From assembly GCA_028709545.1 (NCBI GenBank), contig JAQVWT010000001.1, forward strand, positions 658-64,657: a DNA stretch of 64,000 bases. The letters run 5' to 3'. The DNA is from Bacilli bacterium. Lineage in GTDB: Bacteria; Bacillota_I; Bacilli_A; RF39; UBA660. Shown here piece after piece: positions 5,189 to 36,026 of the stretch; the stretch's first letter is position 1; every line of letters starts with the position of its first letter. Both the position numbers and the translations under genes were made by a program. Below the pieces are notes generated by a model, which saw only the letters and a program-made list of their open reading frames with translations, ran no database searches and was not told the DNA's origin.

Positions 5189-5264
5189 GTCCTGTTAGCT
5201 CAGTAGGTAGAGCATTTGACTTTTAATCAAAGGGTCGCGCGTTCGAGTCGCGCACAGGACACCA
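5189..5264 (+). tRNA. tRNA-Lys(TTT); its 3' 50 nt form the prophage attL core
   Basis: Acceptor gtcctgt/acaggac; anticodon loop ctTTTaa; CCA; 3' part repeated at 35973..36026. Confidence 0.85.
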
Positions 5265-5268
5265 TTTA
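5215..5268 (+). repeat. attL core (54 bp, inside tRNA-Lys)
   Basis: Identical to 35973..36026. Confidence 0.85.
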
Positions 5269-5305: not shown

Positions 5306-5365
5306 ATGATTTATTTTATTATACAAATAAATTGATAAAGTTCAAAATTGGTTTAAATTTGTTTA

Positions 5366-5397
5366 AATTCTTGTGCGTAGACAACAAGTAGACAACA
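5366..5397 (+). repeat. 32-bp arm-type direct repeat (left copy), contains tandem GTAGACAACA
   Basis: aattcttgtgcgtagacaacaagtagacaaca, identical to 35906..35937. Confidence 0.7.
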
Positions 5398-5403
5398 AAA
5401 AAA

Positions 5404-6456
5404 TCAATCTAATAAATCTATTGTTGCTATTAATTGTTCTTTCGTTTTACTATTATAAATACCATCTGTAATATCTCCACTAACAGAGTGCCCTAATATT
5501 AATTTGCGCGCAAGTCTATTAGCTCCCTTAGAATCCAAATCGGTGCTACAAGTGTGGCGACCGTCATGTGGAGTATGATCTAAATCTAGTTTAATCATTA
5601 ACTCTTTATATTTATCTAAATAATATCTATAATTCATTGCTCTTTTTGAATCATTCCATATTAGATATTCAGATTTGTTATCTTCACTAATTGTAATCCT
5701 ATTTTCAATTAAAGGTATTATTCTTTTATGTATAGGAATTATTCTATTAATACCAGCTTTTGTTTTTGATCCTGCTATTAAATATCTTTTATTTAAATTT
5801 ATTTTATCCAATTTGACATTTAATAATTCGCTAGGCCTTAATCCTGTATATATTAATATTATAACAGTATCCACATAATCCTGCTTTAAATTTTTCCATA
5901 ATATTTCTTTTTCCAATTTGCTGAAAGGCTTATGTTTTGATGATAACTCTTTTTTGCCTAATATCACAAATTCGGCATAATTCATTTTTATTGGTAATTC
6001 TTTTTGTTTAGCAATCTCAAATAATTGATTAAACATAATTTTAACATAGTTCTTAGACGTATAACTCTTATTAATCATATTATCTATTATATCTTGTATA
6101 TCAGATGTTCTGATATCAATAAAACGTTTATTATGCAATTTACTTGATTCATTATAAGCAGCATTATAATTTCCTATGCTAACAATATCTTCTCTTAATT
6201 TCATTTTTTTAAAATGATCGAAAACTCCGGTCAAAGTAATATCTAAGTTATTAAAATCATAAGGATCATTGAGATACATAATTAATGCTCTTTCGGCTAA
6301 CTGTCTTGTTTCCCAATACTTTCTTCCGTCCCATTCAATTATTTCCTTTTTTTGCTTTCCCTGATCATCCCAGTTGTTAGTTATAAAAGCAAAGAACGGG
6401 TTTCTTCTTTTACCAGATAATTTTGATGTTCCTCCAGCTCCGTTTGCTCTTTTCAT
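5404..6456 (-). CDS. int: phage integrase (tyrosine recombinase)
   Basis: TGLRPSEL (R), HDGRHTCST (HxxR), LGHS (H), TDGIY (Y): tyrosine-recombinase catalytic residues; sits next to attL. Confidence 0.85.
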   Translation of the reverse strand: MKRANGAGGTSKLSGKRRNPFFAFITNNWDDQGKQKKEIIEWDGRKYWETRQLAERALIMYLNDPYDFNNLDITLTGVFDHFKKMKLREDIVSIGNYNAAYNESSKLHNKRFIDIRTSDIQDIIDNMINKSYTSKNYVKIMFNQLFEIAKQKELPIKMNYAEFVILGKKELSSKHKPFSKLEKEILWKNLKQDYVDTVIILIYTGLRPSELLNVKLDKINLNKRYLIAGSKTKAGINRIIPIHKRIIPLIENRITISEDNKSEYLIWNDSKRAMNYRYYLDKYKELMIKLDLDHTPHDGRHTCSTDLDSKGANRLARKLILGHSVSGDITDGIYNSKTKEQLIATIDLLD

Positions 6457-6547: not shown

Positions 6548-6586
6548 GTTTTTCTATTTTGATTGCCATTGCAGTGGCGGTCTTTT
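6548..6586 (+). terminator. hairpin plus T10 (plus-strand terminator between int and the HIRAN gene)
   Basis: gccattgcagtggc hairpin then tttttttttt. Confidence 0.35.
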
Positions 6587-6589
6587 TTT

Positions 6590-7204
6590 TTATTTCTTTT
6601 TAATTGCTAAGGTTATGTTACAGCCTCTTGTGGGTTTGTCGTACGTTCCCCCAGTTACTTCGTACTGAAGCGCTCTTATTGATGATGTTTCTTCTTTCTC
6701 AATATATCCTTTTTGATAAAATTCATTAGCAAGTTGTTCTGATAAATATCCTATCTTATAATGTCTTTCTGATGACTCATCATATTTATTATATGTTGTT
6801 AATATTGCTATTACCTCTATTGCATTATCAGAATATTTATTGTTTAAATCAGGACGTATTAAAATATTTGCTTCGTATGAATGTTCCAGTTTAAGTAAAT
6901 ATTCTTGTATTTTACCTTGAGTAACACCAACTATTTTAGTTTCAATTATTTTATGTTCATCTAAAAATTTTTGCTCTTTAATTTTATTTTCTTCTTCTTT
7001 TAAAATAATCTGTTTTTGTCTTTCTTTTAATTTTTCCTCTTCCTCAATTTTTAATTGATTGCTTTTAATTTCTTCAGAATGTATTTTCTTTTTTTTACAA
7101 CGGAAATATATTATTAACCATATTCCTAAAGTAAAATATGTCAATATAATATGACACCAAACACTTCTTTTTTTTAATATTATTTTTTCAAATTCTTGCT
7201 TCAT
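6590..7204 (-). CDS. membrane-anchored HIRAN-domain protein (repressor-operon accessory)
   Basis: N-terminal TM (WCHIILTYFTLGIWLIIYF); coiled-coil linker; C-terminal KIVGVTQ...LIRPDLNNKYSDNAIEV...KIGYLSEQLA resembles the HIRAN signature (GV..Y...L.REP.N.YD.NAI.V...IGY); start overlaps the repressor stop. Confidence 0.45.
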   Translation of the reverse strand: MKQEFEKIILKKRSVWCHIILTYFTLGIWLIIYFRCKKKKIHSEEIKSNQLKIEEEEKLKERQKQIILKEEENKIKEQKFLDEHKIIETKIVGVTQGKIQEYLLKLEHSYEANILIRPDLNNKYSDNAIEVIAILTTYNKYDESSERHYKIGYLSEQLANEFYQKGYIEKEETSSIRALQYEVTGGTYDKPTRGCNITLAIKKK

Positions 7205-7638
7205 AATTTCTCCGTATCATTTTTTTCTTTTTCTTTATCCTCATAATCAAGTATATTTATTAATTTAATTAATTTTTTAATGTCATTGTCATTTAATTTT
7301 TCTAATAAATGTAATACCTTTAATAAATTTTGATTTTCATTACTACGTTCTATTAAATTGATTATTTTTTGATCTGTAGTTAATACAGGATCAATATTAC
7401 CAAAAGTAAATTCTTGATCACTATCTAATACATTCACTAAATCTTGAATTTCTTTTCCCATAGCTTTACTTAACTGTTTAAGAACTTCATACGTAGGAGC
7501 GATGGGTTTATTTGTTCTAGGATCTACTTTTTCTAGTGCGGATATATAAGAATGGCTTAAATTAGCTTTTTCAGCAAATGCTCTTAACGACAAATTATTA
7601 TCTTTTCTGTATTGTTTTATAATTTCATTGATAGTCAT
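7201..7638 (-). CDS. CI-like phage repressor (XRE-family HTH)
   Basis: N-terminal HTH LSLRAFAEKANLSHSYISALEK; divergent to the cro-like gene across an operator-rich region. Confidence 0.75.
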   Translation of the reverse strand: MTINEIIKQYRKDNNLSLRAFAEKANLSHSYISALEKVDPRTNKPIAPTYEVLKQLSKAMGKEIQDLVNVLDSDQEFTFGNIDPVLTTDQKIINLIERSNENQNLLKVLHLLEKLNDNDIKKLIKLINILDYEDKEKEKNDTEKL

Positions 7639-7811
7639 AGAAAACCTCCATAATTATTGTACAATATATTTTACGCAAAAACAAGAAAAATATGTACAAC
7701 ATAGTTGACAAAGTTAAAAACATATGCTAAATTGTATGTACGATATGTTGTACAAAAGAACCGAACGAAAGATTATTAGGTAAAACATATCGCACAGAAG
7801 GTGGTGATAAT
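7639..7811. promoter_or_regulatory. lysis/lysogeny switch region with TTGTACAA palindromic operators
   Basis: Perfect 8-bp palindrome TTGTACAA at 7657..7664 and 7748..7755, near-copies at 7692..7700 and 7733..7743; rightward TTGACA(7705)-N17-TAAATT. Confidence 0.55.
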
Positions 7812-8015
7812 ATGAACAATGTAAAACATTATAGAGAATTAGCCGCAATGACTCAAGAAGCTTTAGCTGTAAAAGCTAGAGTCTCAAGAACTACTATTTC
7901 AAATTTAGAAAACAATATAAAAACGACTATTACTAATGAAACAATGAATAAAATAGCAAACGCGTTGAATAAAACAGTGTTTGAAATTTTTTATGAGGAA
8001 AAACCGTCAAGCTAG
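7812..8015 (+). CDS. Cro-like XRE-family HTH regulator
   Basis: MTQEALAVKARVSRTTISNLEN HTH motif; RBS GAAGGTGGTG. Confidence 0.7.
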   Translation: MNNVKHYRELAAMTQEALAVKARVSRTTISNLENNIKTTITNETMNKIANALNKTVFEIFYEEKPSS

Positions 8016-12071: not shown

Positions 12072-12929
12072 ATGGAAACAAAGATTTTAATTGATAATTT
12101 AGAAGAATATATTTTAGAATTACAGGACAATGAGCTTGCTAAAAAAAGTTATTCTAAGTACAAATATGATATTAGTAAATTCATTAAATTTTTAGGAGAT
12201 AAACCTAGATTTATAAAAAATGATTATCTTGAATATATTGGTTCACTAATAAAAAAAGAGTATAAAATTAGTTCGGTCAATTCTTATATTGTTTCCATTA
12301 ATAAATATCTAATTTATTTAAAATATGAAAATTTAAAAATTAAAACTAAAAAAGTTCAAAGGAAACAATCAGTTGAAAATGTTATATCAATAATCGATTA
12401 TAAAAGATTATTAAGAATATCTAAAAAGAATGAATATCTCGATACTTATTGGATATTAAGGTTAATAGCGGGAACTGGAATTAGAGTGTCCGAAGTACAA
12501 TATTTCACAATTGAATCATTATCAGCAGCCAAAGACAAAGATAATGTAGTTATGGTTAATAATAAAGGAAAATGGCGCGAAGTCAGCATATCTACCGAAT
12601 TAATTAGAAACTTGCTTAAACACGGTCAGTCAAATGGAATAAAAAGTGGATATCTATTTTTAAAAAGAAATGATCCTACGAAACCAATAACGCCAAATGC
12701 AATTTGGAAAAGGATACAAAAAATAGCAGGTATAGCCAAAATTAATAAAAAATATGCACACCCACATTCGCTAAGGCATTTATTCGCTAAGACATATTTA
12801 TCGGTTAATCCCGGAGAGTATATGGCACTAGCTGATTTACTTGGTCATGAAGATGTTAGAACAACTGCAATCTATACGCAGGAGTCAAGAAAAGAAAAAA
12901 AAGCTAAAGTGACAGAATTAAAATTATAA
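12072..12929 (+). CDS. second tyrosine recombinase (XerC/XerD-like)
   Basis: AGTGIRVSEV (R), HPHSLRHLFA (HxxR), LLGHED (H), TAIYTQ (Y); 285 aa, Xer-sized. Confidence 0.7.
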   Translation: METKILIDNLEEYILELQDNELAKKSYSKYKYDISKFIKFLGDKPRFIKNDYLEYIGSLIKKEYKISSVNSYIVSINKYLIYLKYENLKIKTKKVQRKQSVENVISIIDYKRLLRISKKNEYLDTYWILRLIAGTGIRVSEVQYFTIESLSAAKDKDNVVMVNNKGKWREVSISTELIRNLLKHGQSNGIKSGYLFLKRNDPTKPITPNAIWKRIQKIAGIAKINKKYAHPHSLRHLFAKTYLSVNPGEYMALADLLGHEDVRTTAIYTQESRKEKKAKVTELKL

Positions 12930-15773: not shown

Positions 15774-16694
15774 ATGAAACATATATGTTTTTATTATTAT
15801 CATATTAACATTATTGGCGGCGTTGAAATAGCGATACTGAATCTAATAAAATTATTAAGTAAAGAGTATAAAATAACTATAGCTTATACCAAGCAAGACA
15901 GTAGCTTAGACATGTTGTTAAGATTAAATAAATATGCTGATATAGTAAATGTCAAATATCAAAAAATCGCATGTGATACAGCTGTTTTCTGCTCTATTTA
16001 TTGTGAAACTCCAAAAAATATAAAAGCTAATAAATATGTTAGATGGTTGCATGGCAATCTTAAAGAAATAGGTTATAATTTAACTAAAGAAGATTTTATA
16101 AATGACTACGTAACGGTAGGTAAGGAATGCCAAAAACAATTAAAAGAAGTTACAGAAGTGGAATCGAATTTAATATATAATGAACTTGATCCTGAAATAC
16201 ATAAAAAAGCTAAAGAAACAATAAATATAATAAAAAAACCTTTAACATTAGTCACAGTATCAAGAATTTCCATAGAAAAAGGTTTTGAAAGAATGTTAAA
16301 ACTCGCCAGATTATTAAAAGAAAAAAAAATAGATTATATTTGGTATATAATCGGATGCAGTTATGACAAGGCTTATGAGGCAAAAATTAAAGATACTAGT
16401 CCGAAAGAATTTATCTATTTAGGAAAATTGGATAATCCGTTCCCATATATGAAAGAATCGGATTTTTTAGTGCAATTAAGCAGTTATGAAAGCCAAGGGT
16501 TATCGGTAGTCGAATCGTTAGTTTTAGGAACACCAGTAATAGTAACTAAATGGAAAGCAGTTAATGAAGTCGTTACAGATAAAGTAAATGGCTATATATT
16601 AGATATGGATTTTAATGATATTCCTGAACTTCAAAAATTAGTGTTCAGATATGAATATAAAAGTAATTATGAAAGGTGGAAAGAAATATTATGA
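15774..16694 (+). CDS. GT-B fold glycosyltransferase (family 1/4-like)
   Basis: N-terminal IIGGVEIAILNL; C-terminal E-x7-E motif ESQGLSVVESLVLGTPVI typical of retaining GT4 enzymes. Confidence 0.6.
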   Translation: MKHICFYYYHINIIGGVEIAILNLIKLLSKEYKITIAYTKQDSSLDMLLRLNKYADIVNVKYQKIACDTAVFCSIYCETPKNIKANKYVRWLHGNLKEIGYNLTKEDFINDYVTVGKECQKQLKEVTEVESNLIYNELDPEIHKKAKETINIIKKPLTLVTVSRISIEKGFERMLKLARLLKEKKIDYIWYIIGCSYDKAYEAKIKDTSPKEFIYLGKLDNPFPYMKESDFLVQLSSYESQGLSVVESLVLGTPVIVTKWKAVNEVVTDKVNGYILDMDFNDIPELQKLVFRYEYKSNYERWKEIL

Positions 16695-30230: not shown

Positions 30231-32183
30231 ATGCATTTAGTATCTTGGGACAGTTATTATTTAACAAGTGGGAGTGCAACGCCGCATAGCGATGGAGATA
30301 TAAAAGGCGAAATAAGAGTTTATCTTATTAGCCAAAGCACGGCTAATAATACATCTTATTTAAGATTAGATCATTATATACATTTAGGAAATTATAATCA
30401 CCCAGGGGCGTCTTACCACGATGTTGTGTCAAGATATCGTGCTTGTGGTACATCCTGCACAACATATCAAAGTAAATCAATCGCACTACCTGATAAAGTT
30501 ACTGGGTGGGTATTCTTGGGGAGTACATATCACACAGTCGGACACGACTCGTCTGGCGGTGGGAGTTTTACTGTTAATGGCACAATTGCATGTAAGAGAT
30601 CTCGATACAACACAGAAAATATATCGAGAGCAACAAATTTTTATGTTCCAATTCCTACAATACCTAGATATACATCTATCACGACGTACACCAGAACGAA
30701 TATTACTTTAAACTCGTTTAGAGTTAACTGGGCTAGTGCTAATACAGTCGATAGAGTTGAGTACAGAATTAATAGCGGTGCATGGACATTAGGACAGTCT
30801 GGAGATAGAACGAGCGGTAATTTTACAATTACAGGAAGAAATCCCGGAACGACTTATAATATCCAAATTAGAGTACGTAGAAAAGATAGTCAGTTATGGA
30901 CAGAAAGTGCTAACCCATCTGTAACAACGCTAAATATTGCAACATTAAATTCAGTACCTAATAACATTGACTTTGAAAAACCTTTTACAGTTACTTTCAC
31001 AAGAAATGGTGCTAGTAATACTAGTTTTGGTATATTTAACACAGCTGGCAGTATAGATTTTGCTCCATATAGAATAGTAACAGGAACATCTTACACTGTT
31101 GAATTAACTGAAGAGGAAATAAACGCATTATTTAATGATATGAGTACTGTCAACAGTAAAACTTATAGGATTTACCTAAATACTAACGATAATAATTATA
31201 GAGTATTTGCAAACAGAACATTTAATGTTGTTAATGCAAACCCAATATTCAGCAACTTTGAATATGAAGATATAAACCCATTAACTTTAGATTTAACTGG
31301 AAATAATCAAACTATTATAAAAGGTTACTCTAACCTAAAAGCGACTATAACATCGGCAAATAAAATGGAAGCTATAAAAGGTGCGAATCCTAAAGAGTAT
31401 CAATTAGTAGTTGGATCTAAACAAATAAAAAAGAATTATCACGCAAGCAACAATGTAGATTTAACATTAAATGCTATTGATAATAACGTGTTTATTGTTT
31501 ACGCAATCGACAGCCGTGGGAACTCAACCCAAAAACAGATAAGTCCAGCTAATTATATTAATTATATTAAACCGACAATTAATGAACTAATCGTAAATCG
31601 GCAAAATAACATAAGTACTCTAACTAATTTAAGTTTTAGTGGTACTTTTTTTAATGCGAGTTTTGGAGCGGCGGCAAACACTTTGACGGCGACCTACGAA
31701 TACCGCAACACCAAAGATAGTAATTGGACAGTTGGAGCAACAGCCTTACCATTAACTATAAATGGCAATAACTTTAACTTTAGTGGGCTTGTAGCCGGTA
31801 ATTTAAACGCAGAAGGATTTATTATCAAAGATAGCTTTGAGGTCAGAGTTAAAATTAACGATAAATTAGTGCAAGAAACAAGAGCAGAAATATTGCTTAG
31901 TGCTAAGCCAAATCTAGACTTACATAAAGACGGAACATCGATTAATAATCCGTTTGATGAGACTCTAGGAAATGGCGTGCAGTTTAACGGCGATGGAATT
32001 TGGTATAACGGAATAAAGCTTTTTGGTTGGTCCGGAGCTATGCCGATGAGTATGCAAAGTGAGACTGAAGAACTAAAAGAAATTGAAACGACTGAAACTG
32101 AAGAACTAGAAGAAGTTGTGGAATTAAAAGAAAGTGAGGAAAAAGAAGATGAAAGTATTGACATCAATACAGAAAATTTTTAA
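30231..32183 (+). CDS. tail fibre / receptor-binding protein with FN3-like domain and acidic C-terminal tail
   Basis: RVNWASANTVDRVEYRINSGAWT...TTYNIQIRVRRKD is FN3-like; N/T-rich β-repeat body; C-terminal ETEELKEIETTETEELEE. Confidence 0.5.
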   Translation: MHLVSWDSYYLTSGSATPHSDGDIKGEIRVYLISQSTANNTSYLRLDHYIHLGNYNHPGASYHDVVSRYRACGTSCTTYQSKSIALPDKVTGWVFLGSTYHTVGHDSSGGGSFTVNGTIACKRSRYNTENISRATNFYVPIPTIPRYTSITTYTRTNITLNSFRVNWASANTVDRVEYRINSGAWTLGQSGDRTSGNFTITGRNPGTTYNIQIRVRRKDSQLWTESANPSVTTLNIATLNSVPNNIDFEKPFTVTFTRNGASNTSFGIFNTAGSIDFAPYRIVTGTSYTVELTEEEINALFNDMSTVNSKTYRIYLNTNDNNYRVFANRTFNVVNANPIFSNFEYEDINPLTLDLTGNNQTIIKGYSNLKATITSANKMEAIKGANPKEYQLVVGSKQIKKNYHASNNVDLTLNAIDNNVFIVYAIDSRGNSTQKQISPANYINYIKPTINELIVNRQNNISTLTNLSFSGTFFNASFGAAANTLTATYEYRNTKDSNWTVGATALPLTINGNNFNFSGLVAGNLNAEGFIIKDSFEVRVKINDKLVQETRAEILLSAKPNLDLHKDGTSINNPFDETLGNGVQFNGDGIWYNGIKLFGWSGAMPMSMQSETEELKEIETTETEELEEVVELKESEEKEDESIDINTENF

Positions 32184-32186
32184 TCT

Positions 32187-32258
<72 letters not shown>

Positions 32259-32329: not shown

Positions 32330-32707
32330 ATGTTTATGCTAGAACTTGGTGAAGAATTTAAAGATTTTTTAAAAAGCGAAATATTAGGCAGTTCAATAAA
32401 ATCAATAACTGAAAAAGGATTGTCTATTGGTTCGAACGGTTCGTATCAAATCCCTAGTTTCCCTAATATGAATAAAATTTTATATATGGAATTATTTCTA
32501 TACACTGAAGGTCATCCGACAACAGGTTCAGGTAATTTTATATATCCTGGGTCTGGATATAATTATTTAGTGGCGTCTAGTAATCTTACTGGAACTTTTA
32601 AAGGAATATATGCACAAGTAAGTTCAGAAGGTTTGATATTTGTGTCAAATTACAGACACGGTGGTGTTAATGTAATTGGATATAGAATTGTATATTTAGA
32701 TTTATAA
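32330..32707 (+). CDS. small tail-fibre-associated protein (paralog of 33166..33612)
   Basis: N-termini MLELGEEFKDFLKSEI and MLKIGEEFKEIIEKII are alike. Confidence 0.35.
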   Translation: MFMLELGEEFKDFLKSEILGSSIKSITEKGLSIGSNGSYQIPSFPNMNKILYMELFLYTEGHPTTGSGNFIYPGSGYNYLVASSNLTGTFKGIYAQVSSEGLIFVSNYRHGGVNVIGYRIVYLDL

Positions 32708-35868: not shown

Positions 35869-35905
35869 ATAAAATCATAAAATATAATTGTTGTTAAATG
35901 CTTTG

Positions 35906-35937
35906 AATTCTTGTGCGTAGACAACAAGTAGACAACA
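35906..35937 (+). repeat. 32-bp arm-type direct repeat (right copy)
   Basis: Identical to 5366..5397. Confidence 0.7.
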
Positions 35938-35972: not shown

Positions 35973-36026
35973 TTTGACTTTTAATCAAAGGGTCGCGCGT
36001 TCGAGTCGCGCACAGGACACCATTTA
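35973..36026 (+). repeat. attR core (partial tRNA-Lys 3' copy)
   Basis: Identical to 5215..5268; no tRNA 5' half upstream. Confidence 0.85.

Follow-up and report, generated by a model that had tools for sequence, protein, structure and literature searches.

A thaL-like, membrane-anchored HIRAN-domain protein encoded with the repressor of a Bacilli prophage is a candidate for defence against incoming DNA

The nuclease SNIPE is bound to the membrane and cleaves phage DNA while it is being injected (PMC13190303). AbiP of Lactococcus and PdpSau of Staphylococcus aureus Sa2 prophages consist of an N-terminal transmembrane (TM) segment and a cytoplasmic nucleic-acid-binding domain of the oligonucleotide/oligosaccharide-binding (OB)-like type; both act by abortive infection, and PdpSau depolarises the membrane upon infection (PMC10127798). 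The HIRAN domain was predicted to bind damaged DNA (Iyer et al. 2006, as cited in PMC11706625), and it is a component of the HipN/HipL toxin-antitoxin modules with HipA kinase and of the PADLOC defence candidate PDC-M03, which combines HipA with HIRAN (Gerdes preprint; PMC11706625, PMC13245101). A gene type encoding both a TM segment and a HIRAN domain was named thaL, without functional work, in a paper on the arms race between prophages and transformation (PMC12637031), and no other paper using its TM-plus-HIRAN phrase was found in the literature searched. Here, we analyzed a stretch of 64,000 nucleotides (nt) from a Bacilli bacterium (contig JAQVWT010000001.1, positions 658 to 64,657; referred to as the window), in which a prophage carries a thaL-like gene (6590..7204, minus strand) for a membrane-anchored HIRAN-domain protein of 204 amino acids (aa). 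The most likely role of this protein, to which we assign a probability of roughly 50%, would be a prophage-encoded defence against incoming foreign DNA, mainly superinfecting phages, acting at the membrane. This reading is the most economical because the TM-HIRAN protein is coupled to the repressor, the same gene slot recurs in other prophages, and cargo of the abortive-infection (Abi) type lies alongside.

In the open reading frame (ORF) list, the gene starts with ATG and its stop codon lies at 6590-6592; the identical protein in NCBI is MDD4794949.1, a "hypothetical protein [Bacilli bacterium]". The original prediction, which was made from the sequence alone, had recognized a HIRAN-like C-terminal half from three motifs, and these were located at residues 91-96 (IVGVTQ), 115-131 (LIRPDLNNKYSDNAIEV), and 150-154 (KIGYL). 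A Pfam search with the HIRAN profile (PF08797), suggested there as a check, gave a borderline result for the single sequence, with a score of 19.1 bits (E = 1.2e-3) under the gathering cut-off of 24.7 bits and an alignment of residues 110-163 against positions 22-63 of the 96 in the profile, but the domain was recovered when the family profile was used. An exhaustive HMMER scan of a library of 1.84 billion representative proteins yielded 29 homologues at E <= 1e-3, and PF08797 matched 15 of 26 aligned homologues (best E = 5.2e-14). With a profile of the C-terminal domain (A2), 113 proteins were recovered, and PF08797 was the precomputed assignment for most of them. When searched against the PDB, the family profile matched the HIRAN chains of HLTF (E = 5e-5) and Lactobacillus lp_0118 (3k2y; E = 1e-4); hhalign of the family against HLTF gave a probability of 94.6%, and the family consensus matched HLTF with an E value of 1.6e-5. 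The AlphaFold model built with a 73-sequence alignment had a mean predicted local distance difference test (pLDDT) score of 92.4, and the C-terminal half scored below 50 when the model was built from the single sequence. In the former model, residues 84-202 (6599..6955, minus strand) are predicted to fold into a beta-barrel of six strands together with two helices (strand 84-90, helix 99-107, strands 112-118, 129-138, and 144-153, helix 156-165, strands 176-185 and 193-202) that is superimposable on solved HIRAN domains; a clade-specific loop, T184-G-G-T-x-D-K-P-T-x-G194-C-N-I, precedes the last strand. A Foldseek search of the PDB with the full-length model returned nothing significant, which we suppose to be an effect of its 83-residue helix. 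Because the homologues match PF08797, the family profile matches HLTF, and the model shows the fold, the identification of the C-terminal half as a HIRAN domain is sound at the family and fold levels, although the single sequence stays under the Pfam threshold.

It took the exhaustive HMMER scan to reveal the family. A word-indexed homologue search gave only a 99%-identical copy, a single-protein search of GTDB representatives and IMG/VR found no relative, and a search for related loci with a 6-sequence alignment returned just 2 and 4 weak loci. No informative match to the window protein was obtained in NCBIfam, PADLOC, or the PHROGs of known function. With tblastn against 50,697 phage records, neither the window protein nor the homologue P0039 had a match, and no streptococcal match was obtained for the window protein or family members; another homologue, P0040, matched phage records through its TM2 domain only, and the family consensus did give phage matches. 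Two other identities were considered and rejected. The arbitrium antirepressor Sar (9rgl_F) appeared with a profile E value of 0.069; its structure is an intertwined DNA-mimicking dimer, and the description of that structure claims no relation to HIRAN. An ImmA/IrrE-like protease, of the kind that the original prediction had given as a usual occupant of this slot, was discarded, as the 204 aa contained no HExxH motif and no Peptidase_M78 match even at E <= 1.

The DNA-binding residues of the domain were then compared with those of HLTF, in which Y72 and Y93 pack against the final two bases and D94 makes contact with the 3'-OH (PMC5773155). In a sequence alignment of 89 family members with HLTF, from which all residue correspondences were taken, several positions were kept in the window protein: HLTF Y93 as Y124, N90/N91 as N121/N122, N96/A97 as N127/A128, and G109 as G152. 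Two others were replaced, Y72 by Q96 (F in 51 family members, H in 15, K in 8, and Y in 7) and D94 by S125 (D in 42, S in 25, and P in 15). At a position with no HLTF equivalent, the clade arginine R99 (83 of 89 members) is I99 in the window protein. Q100 is invariant across the clade, and a nearly invariant clade loop, TGGTxDKPTxG(C/V)NI, stands in place of the HLTF loop that bears F142. The window protein thus has substitutions at the Y72 and D94 equivalents of the canonical 3'-end pocket, and the recognition of free 3'-OH ends, which the original prediction had carried over from other HIRAN domains, is not transferable as it stands. Nucleic-acid binding is a reasonable inference from the modelled fold, but the partial conservation of the canonical 3'-OH pocket leaves specific recognition of 3'-OH ends hypothetical.

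The N-terminus agreed with the earlier description of a single TM helix: hydropathy predicted one TM segment in the window protein, at residues ~17-35 (7100..7156, minus strand; Kyte-Doolittle value of 1.82 for residues 14-32). Residues 13-43 (7076-7168, minus strand) resemble DUF4234 in Pfam (E = 2.9e-4; 21.3 bits, below the cut-off of 25.3), and the match covers the first helix of that domain; four of 26 homologues matched DUF4234 as well, with a best E value of 1.3e-6. In the alignment, an anchor motif, LKKRSxW(F/C)HIIxTYFTxGIWxIIYF, was common to the window protein and P0003, P0006, P0009, P0010, P0013, P0014, P0018, and P0039; the four homologues with a DUF4234 match are among these. In the alignment, P0009 and P0014 join this module to C-terminal parts without the clade HIRAN motifs, so the anchor is portable. 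Between anchor and HIRAN domain is a charged, K/E-rich helical stalk of 48 residues (36-83; 6956..7099, minus strand), the length and sequence of which vary among homologues. The models place residues 2-83 in one continuous helix, with pLDDT above 90 in the one built on the 73-sequence alignment, and the stalk would be roughly 7 nm long.

TM segments were predicted in 47 of the 89 family members, and the anchors are of unrelated types: DUF4234-like, TM2 (PF05154), DUF4236-associated, plain N-terminal, and C-terminal tail anchors. Since unrelated anchors seem to have been acquired repeatedly and independently, the family argues that membrane tethering is under selection and belongs to the function. 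In the plain N-terminal anchors, the N-tip is acidic or carries no charge and the C-flank is basic, and the tail-anchored members lack a signal peptide; from these two features, we infer that the HIRAN domain lies on the cytoplasmic face of the membrane.

The position of the gene was as the original prediction had read it, between repressor and integrase and overlapping the repressor stop. The HIRAN-gene ATG (7204-7202) and the repressor TGA (7203-7201) share the sequence ATGA with a 4-nt overlap, and a Shine-Dalgarno sequence, GGAG (7210..7213, minus strand), is located 5 nt upstream of the ATG within the 3' end of the repressor gene. The overlap and the internal GGAG make the two genes a translationally coupled pair, and because the overlap leaves no gap between them, they are probably co-transcribed. 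The repressor gene (7201..7638, minus strand) encodes a CI-like protein of 145 aa with an HTH_3 helix-turn-helix (HTH) domain (Pfam E = 1.4e-10) and a helical C-terminal part, and it matched PHROG regulator and repressor families. On the same strand, after a gap of 133 nt downstream of the HIRAN gene, lies the gene for a tyrosine integrase of 350 aa (5404..6456, minus strand; PF00589 E = 1.3e-19, phrog_1 E = 1.1e-37). The terminator scan found no convincing intrinsic terminator on the minus strand after the HIRAN gene, and read-through into the integrase gene is therefore neither shown nor excluded. On the plus strand, a hairpin followed by T9 at 6561-6592 resembles an intrinsic terminator, overlaps the HIRAN stop codon, and is oriented against the integrase, HIRAN, and repressor genes; it might keep antisense transcripts out of the immunity operon. 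Divergent from the repressor operon, a Cro-like HTH protein of 67 aa is encoded at 7812..8015 (plus strand; HTH_3 E = 6.2e-14). The 173-nt spacer between repressor and cro holds three 17-nt operator-like repeats (7658-7674, 7693-7709, and 7737-7753), which read TGTACAAYATA...TAC with partial dyad symmetry, and a promoter-like site, TTGACA-17-TAAATT, at 7705-7733 on the plus strand. As read from these putative operators, the arrangement is the classic layout of a three-operator switch.

Next, we examined the genes around the relatives in 12 distinct neighbourhoods, window included; the prophages among them came largely from metagenome contigs. In five of the 12 (window, P0037, P0039, P0040, and P0006), the gene immediately followed that of a phage repressor and had the same orientation. 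P0037 is flanked by an HTH repressor and an integrase. P0039 follows a CI protein with HTH and S24 domains and precedes a DUF3644/EC042_2821 gene of the restriction-endonuclease-like type and then an integrase. P0040, which has a TM2 anchor, stands between an HTH_3 repressor and Abi_alpha. P0006 (locus L025, 996-2198) lies between a LexA-like CI with HTH and S24 domains and a DUF3644/EC042_2821 gene; in this protein of 400 aa, an RNase_T (DEDD) 3'-5' exonuclease is inserted between the shared TM module and the HIRAN domain. Abi_alpha or DUF3644/EC042_2821 genes thus share the slot in three homologue loci. Other relatives are in surroundings that resemble defence islands, P0029 after a protein kinase gene and among HicB, PemK, and Shedu SduA, and P0064 with HicB, a caspase-like peptidase, and DUF3800; P0047 has putAbiC and a transposase nearby. 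The suggestion of superinfection exclusion in the original prediction fits these surroundings, which are consistent with a defence function.

Relatives with other architectures were also found beside lysogeny genes. In S. aureus phages of the phiSa2 type, a LexA-family CI is followed 11 nt later by a soluble HIRAN protein of 284 aa without a TM segment (phiSa2-NARSA676; L031, 3407-4261), and in the Terrisporobacter phage TPELB_ph1, a protein of 499 aa with DUF4236-like, TM, HIRAN, and TPR parts adjoins the integrase. The phiSa2 protein is annotated as a "restriction endonuclease" in one record and as a nucleic-acid-binding protein in another; no mention of its function was found in the literature searched. 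The TM2 anchor of P0040 matches Roseburia phage Jekyll (LR596902.1, 42437-42586; H3), in a gene annotated as a "putative restriction endonuclease", which may encode another phage-derived membrane-anchored nuclease.

The coupling to the repressor raises the alternative, also put forward in the original prediction, that the HIRAN protein is a partner of the repressor and an induction sensor. It would detect single-stranded DNA (ssDNA) or DNA ends arising from damage and inactivate the repressor or sequester it at the membrane, thereby standing in for a missing ImmA protease or S24 autocleavage domain. The Pfam scan found no Peptidase_S24 domain in the repressor and no M78/ImmA gene, and the repressor resembles CapH-type regulators (PADLOC HTH_VI/capH-like; capH E = 6.5e-7). 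The partner protease of CapH reportedly responds to DNA damage. In addition to the translational coupling itself, one chromosomal, non-phage relative can be counted in favour of such a sensor: P0098 (L029/L030, 5001-5621), with an N-terminal HIRAN domain and a C-terminal TM segment, is encoded directly after the gene for an extracytoplasmic-function (ECF)-type sigma factor, where an anti-sigma factor would usually be found. However, the homologues in the same slot are paired with non-homologous repressors that have nothing in common beyond the HTH, and several of these are self-cleaving CI proteins of the HTH+S24 type that would need no added sensor. Many family members adjoin no regulator at all, and the membrane is an odd place from which to sense damage to the chromosome. 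These observations weaken the proposal, and we consider an induction sensor quite unlikely.

Defence at the membrane, our preferred reading, can be set out in steps. In the lysogen, one transcript would yield both the CI-like repressor and, through translational coupling, the HIRAN protein, and the HIRAN domain would be held at the cytoplasmic face of the membrane by the TM helix and the stalk. There, close to or at the point where a genome enters, the domain would engage the ends of nucleic acids. Two outcomes can be envisaged. The entering genome might be intercepted directly, by the logic of superinfection exclusion or of SNIPE, or the nucleic acid might trigger membrane damage and abortive infection, as in AbiP and PdpSau; these two are inseparable on present evidence. 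P0006, judged by its domains, combines precisely what a device for holding a 3' end and degrading it would need. The following points weigh against defence at the membrane. The Q96, S125, and I99 substitutions mean that binding of DNA 3' ends may be altered or lost, since the equivalents of Y72, D94, and R99 are all replaced. The flanks of the TM helix in the window protein tie at a net charge of +3/+3, so its topology is ambiguous and has to be taken from the family. The absence of any matching PADLOC model or PHROG of known function, noted above, counts here as well, as do the position of P0098 after an ECF sigma factor gene and the fact that thaL has been named only. One family member lies in a tail module and another after the large terminase subunit, and an association with an accessory slot of prophages is weak evidence for any specific mechanism.

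The two members in lytic-cycle modules speak for a role in the DNA transactions of the phage itself, in which the protein would handle genome ends at the membrane during entry, circularisation, replication, or packaging, with no part in immunity. HIRAN-domain genes are noted in the literature in bacterial mobile elements and defence contexts, and Iyer and co-workers reportedly noted them in prophages too. Against this role, the window and four other prophages have the gene on the repressor strand, coupled to the repressor, and expression would consequently be expected in the lysogen rather than in the lytic cycle. Within phage groups, the gene is distributed patchily, as accessory cargo typically is. 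A role confined to the phage's own DNA is therefore decidedly unlikely in our judgement.

The proposed tethering at the cytoplasmic face is also compatible with an anti-transformation or anti-curing function, in which the domain would catch the end of ssDNA as it passes the competence channel. Transformation would thereby be lowered and the prophage protected against deletion by homologous recombination; conjugative DNA is a further possible target. In Gram-positive cells, ssDNA enters 3' end first. HIRAN domains bind 3' ends (PMC5773155), and the sole paper that names thaL concerns prophages and transformation, but it ties thaL to no transformation phenotype (PMC12637031). The pocket residues for the 3'-OH are partly substituted, and the neighbouring cargo is of the phage-defence type (Abi_alpha and restriction-endonuclease-like genes) rather than related to competence. 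On balance, an anti-transformation function is very unlikely. In a further reading, which we regard as unlikely, the protein would be a non-enzymatic sensor of DNA ends, tethered to the membrane, for which place and not sequence distinguishes self from non-self. Whatever DNA came across the membrane, such a sensor would seize its leading end, be it that of a phage genome during injection or, in transformation, the 3' end of ssDNA; catching the latter would shield the prophage from "chromosomal curing", and P0006 would be the degradative version of the same sensor.

The prophage that carries the gene is ~30.76 kb long and inserted in a tRNA-Lys gene (5189-5264). Its ends are an exact 54-nt direct repeat of the 3' part of this gene, with the attL core at 5215..5268 and the attR core at 35973..36026, both on the plus strand, as identified by repeat search and tRNA annotation. 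The interval bounded by these cores carries genes for terminase, portal, major head, tape measure, tail, and endolysin, and by its predicted genes the element is an intact-looking siphovirus-type prophage; the same prophage segment was found again in an independent sequencing sample (L001). Just inside both ends is a 52-nt direct repeat of 87% identity (5346-5397 and 35886-35937), each copy of which terminates in tandem GTAGACAACAA x 2. These copies, which would flank the tRNA-Lys core in the circular attP, may be arm-type integrase-binding sites. A second tyrosine recombinase of 285 aa (12072-12929, plus strand; phrog_1 E = 8e-35) is encoded among the early genes. In the intergenic region between a 650-aa tail-region ORF of unassigned function, which stops at 32183, and an ORF at 32330-32707, a perfect (AAGC) x 17.8 microsatellite at 32188-32258 looks like a slipped-strand phase-variation tract, which is unusual for a prophage. 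In addition, a glycosyltransferase-like moron (15774-16694, plus strand; phrog_2170 E = 8e-13) could modify a surface receptor and would then be a second candidate for an exclusion function.

What a lysogen admits, in terms of phages and perhaps also of foreign DNA, is shaped by prophage genes that are expressed together with the repressor. The HIRAN gene family, usually annotated as hypothetical, occupies the repressor slot again and again in several prophages that are unrelated. The window gene represents a compact single-gene version of it, and the exonuclease fusion, the TM2 anchor, and the tail anchor are natural variants. If DNA ends are indeed intercepted at the membrane, this family would be the second example, after SNIPE, of immunity by place of entry and not by sequence, and the ancient HIRAN fold would gain a defined prokaryotic role.

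As is proposed here, SNIPE acts from the membrane in defence against entering phage DNA, and P0006, with its TM module, DEDD exonuclease, and HIRAN domain, has corresponding parts. In contrast, the window protein has no nuclease domain, and no DUF4041/SNIPE homology was found. With AbiP and PdpSau, which are single-gene anti-phage proteins borne on prophages or plasmids, the window protein shares the layout of an N-terminal TM segment and an OB-like domain; its binding domain is a HIRAN domain, however, and the PADLOC and PHROG scans detected no sequence relation. The genomic setting also differs, as pdpSau is linked to the lysis module and the window gene to the repressor. The HipN/HipL and PDC-M03 systems likewise place a bacterial HIRAN domain in the context of a conflict system, and P0029 follows a protein kinase in a defence island. 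In the window, there is no adjacent kinase, no HipS-like domain, and no PADLOC match, and the protein is instead membrane-anchored and repressor-coupled.

Sie2009/Ltp-type proteins of lactic-acid-bacteria prophages are small, membrane-associated, expressed in the lysogen, and encoded between integrase and repressor. Ltp, a lipoprotein exposed at the surface, acts from outside to block injection, whereas the domain of the window protein has a predicted nucleic-acid-binding fold and is most likely cytoplasmic; no sequence similarity was found in the PHROG scan. Compared with the HIRAN domains of HLTF/Rad5 (PF08797; PDB 4xzg, 4s0n, and 6l8o) and of the bacterial stand-alone HIRAN protein lp_0118, the core N-N-x-Y-x-x-N-A-I-x-V ... 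G-(Y/H)-L is conserved. HLTF R71, Y72, D94, and F142 correspond to T95, Q96, S125, and P191 in the window protein, which also has an additional helix (99-107) after strand 1, bearing the clade motif (R)Q, and has the clade-specific TGGTxDKPTxGCNI as its loop ahead of the last strand. Moreover, the domain is tethered to the membrane and is not part of an SNF2/RING remodeller. The closest counterpart is pneumococcal ThaL of phiRMV8, which has no assigned function and is described as a TM segment plus a HIRAN domain encoded in a prophage lysogeny module with a C1-type regulator. The window protein likewise combines TM segment and HIRAN domain in one polypeptide and is encoded in a lysogeny module beside a prophage regulator; set against the description of ThaL, by which alone the two were compared, it is distinguished by a DUF4234-like anchor, the 48-residue charged stalk, and the substituted pocket residues. 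The architecture, which the original prediction had taken to be undescribed, has therefore already been noticed and named as thaL while remaining uncharacterised, and the window protein is a new, divergent member of this type.

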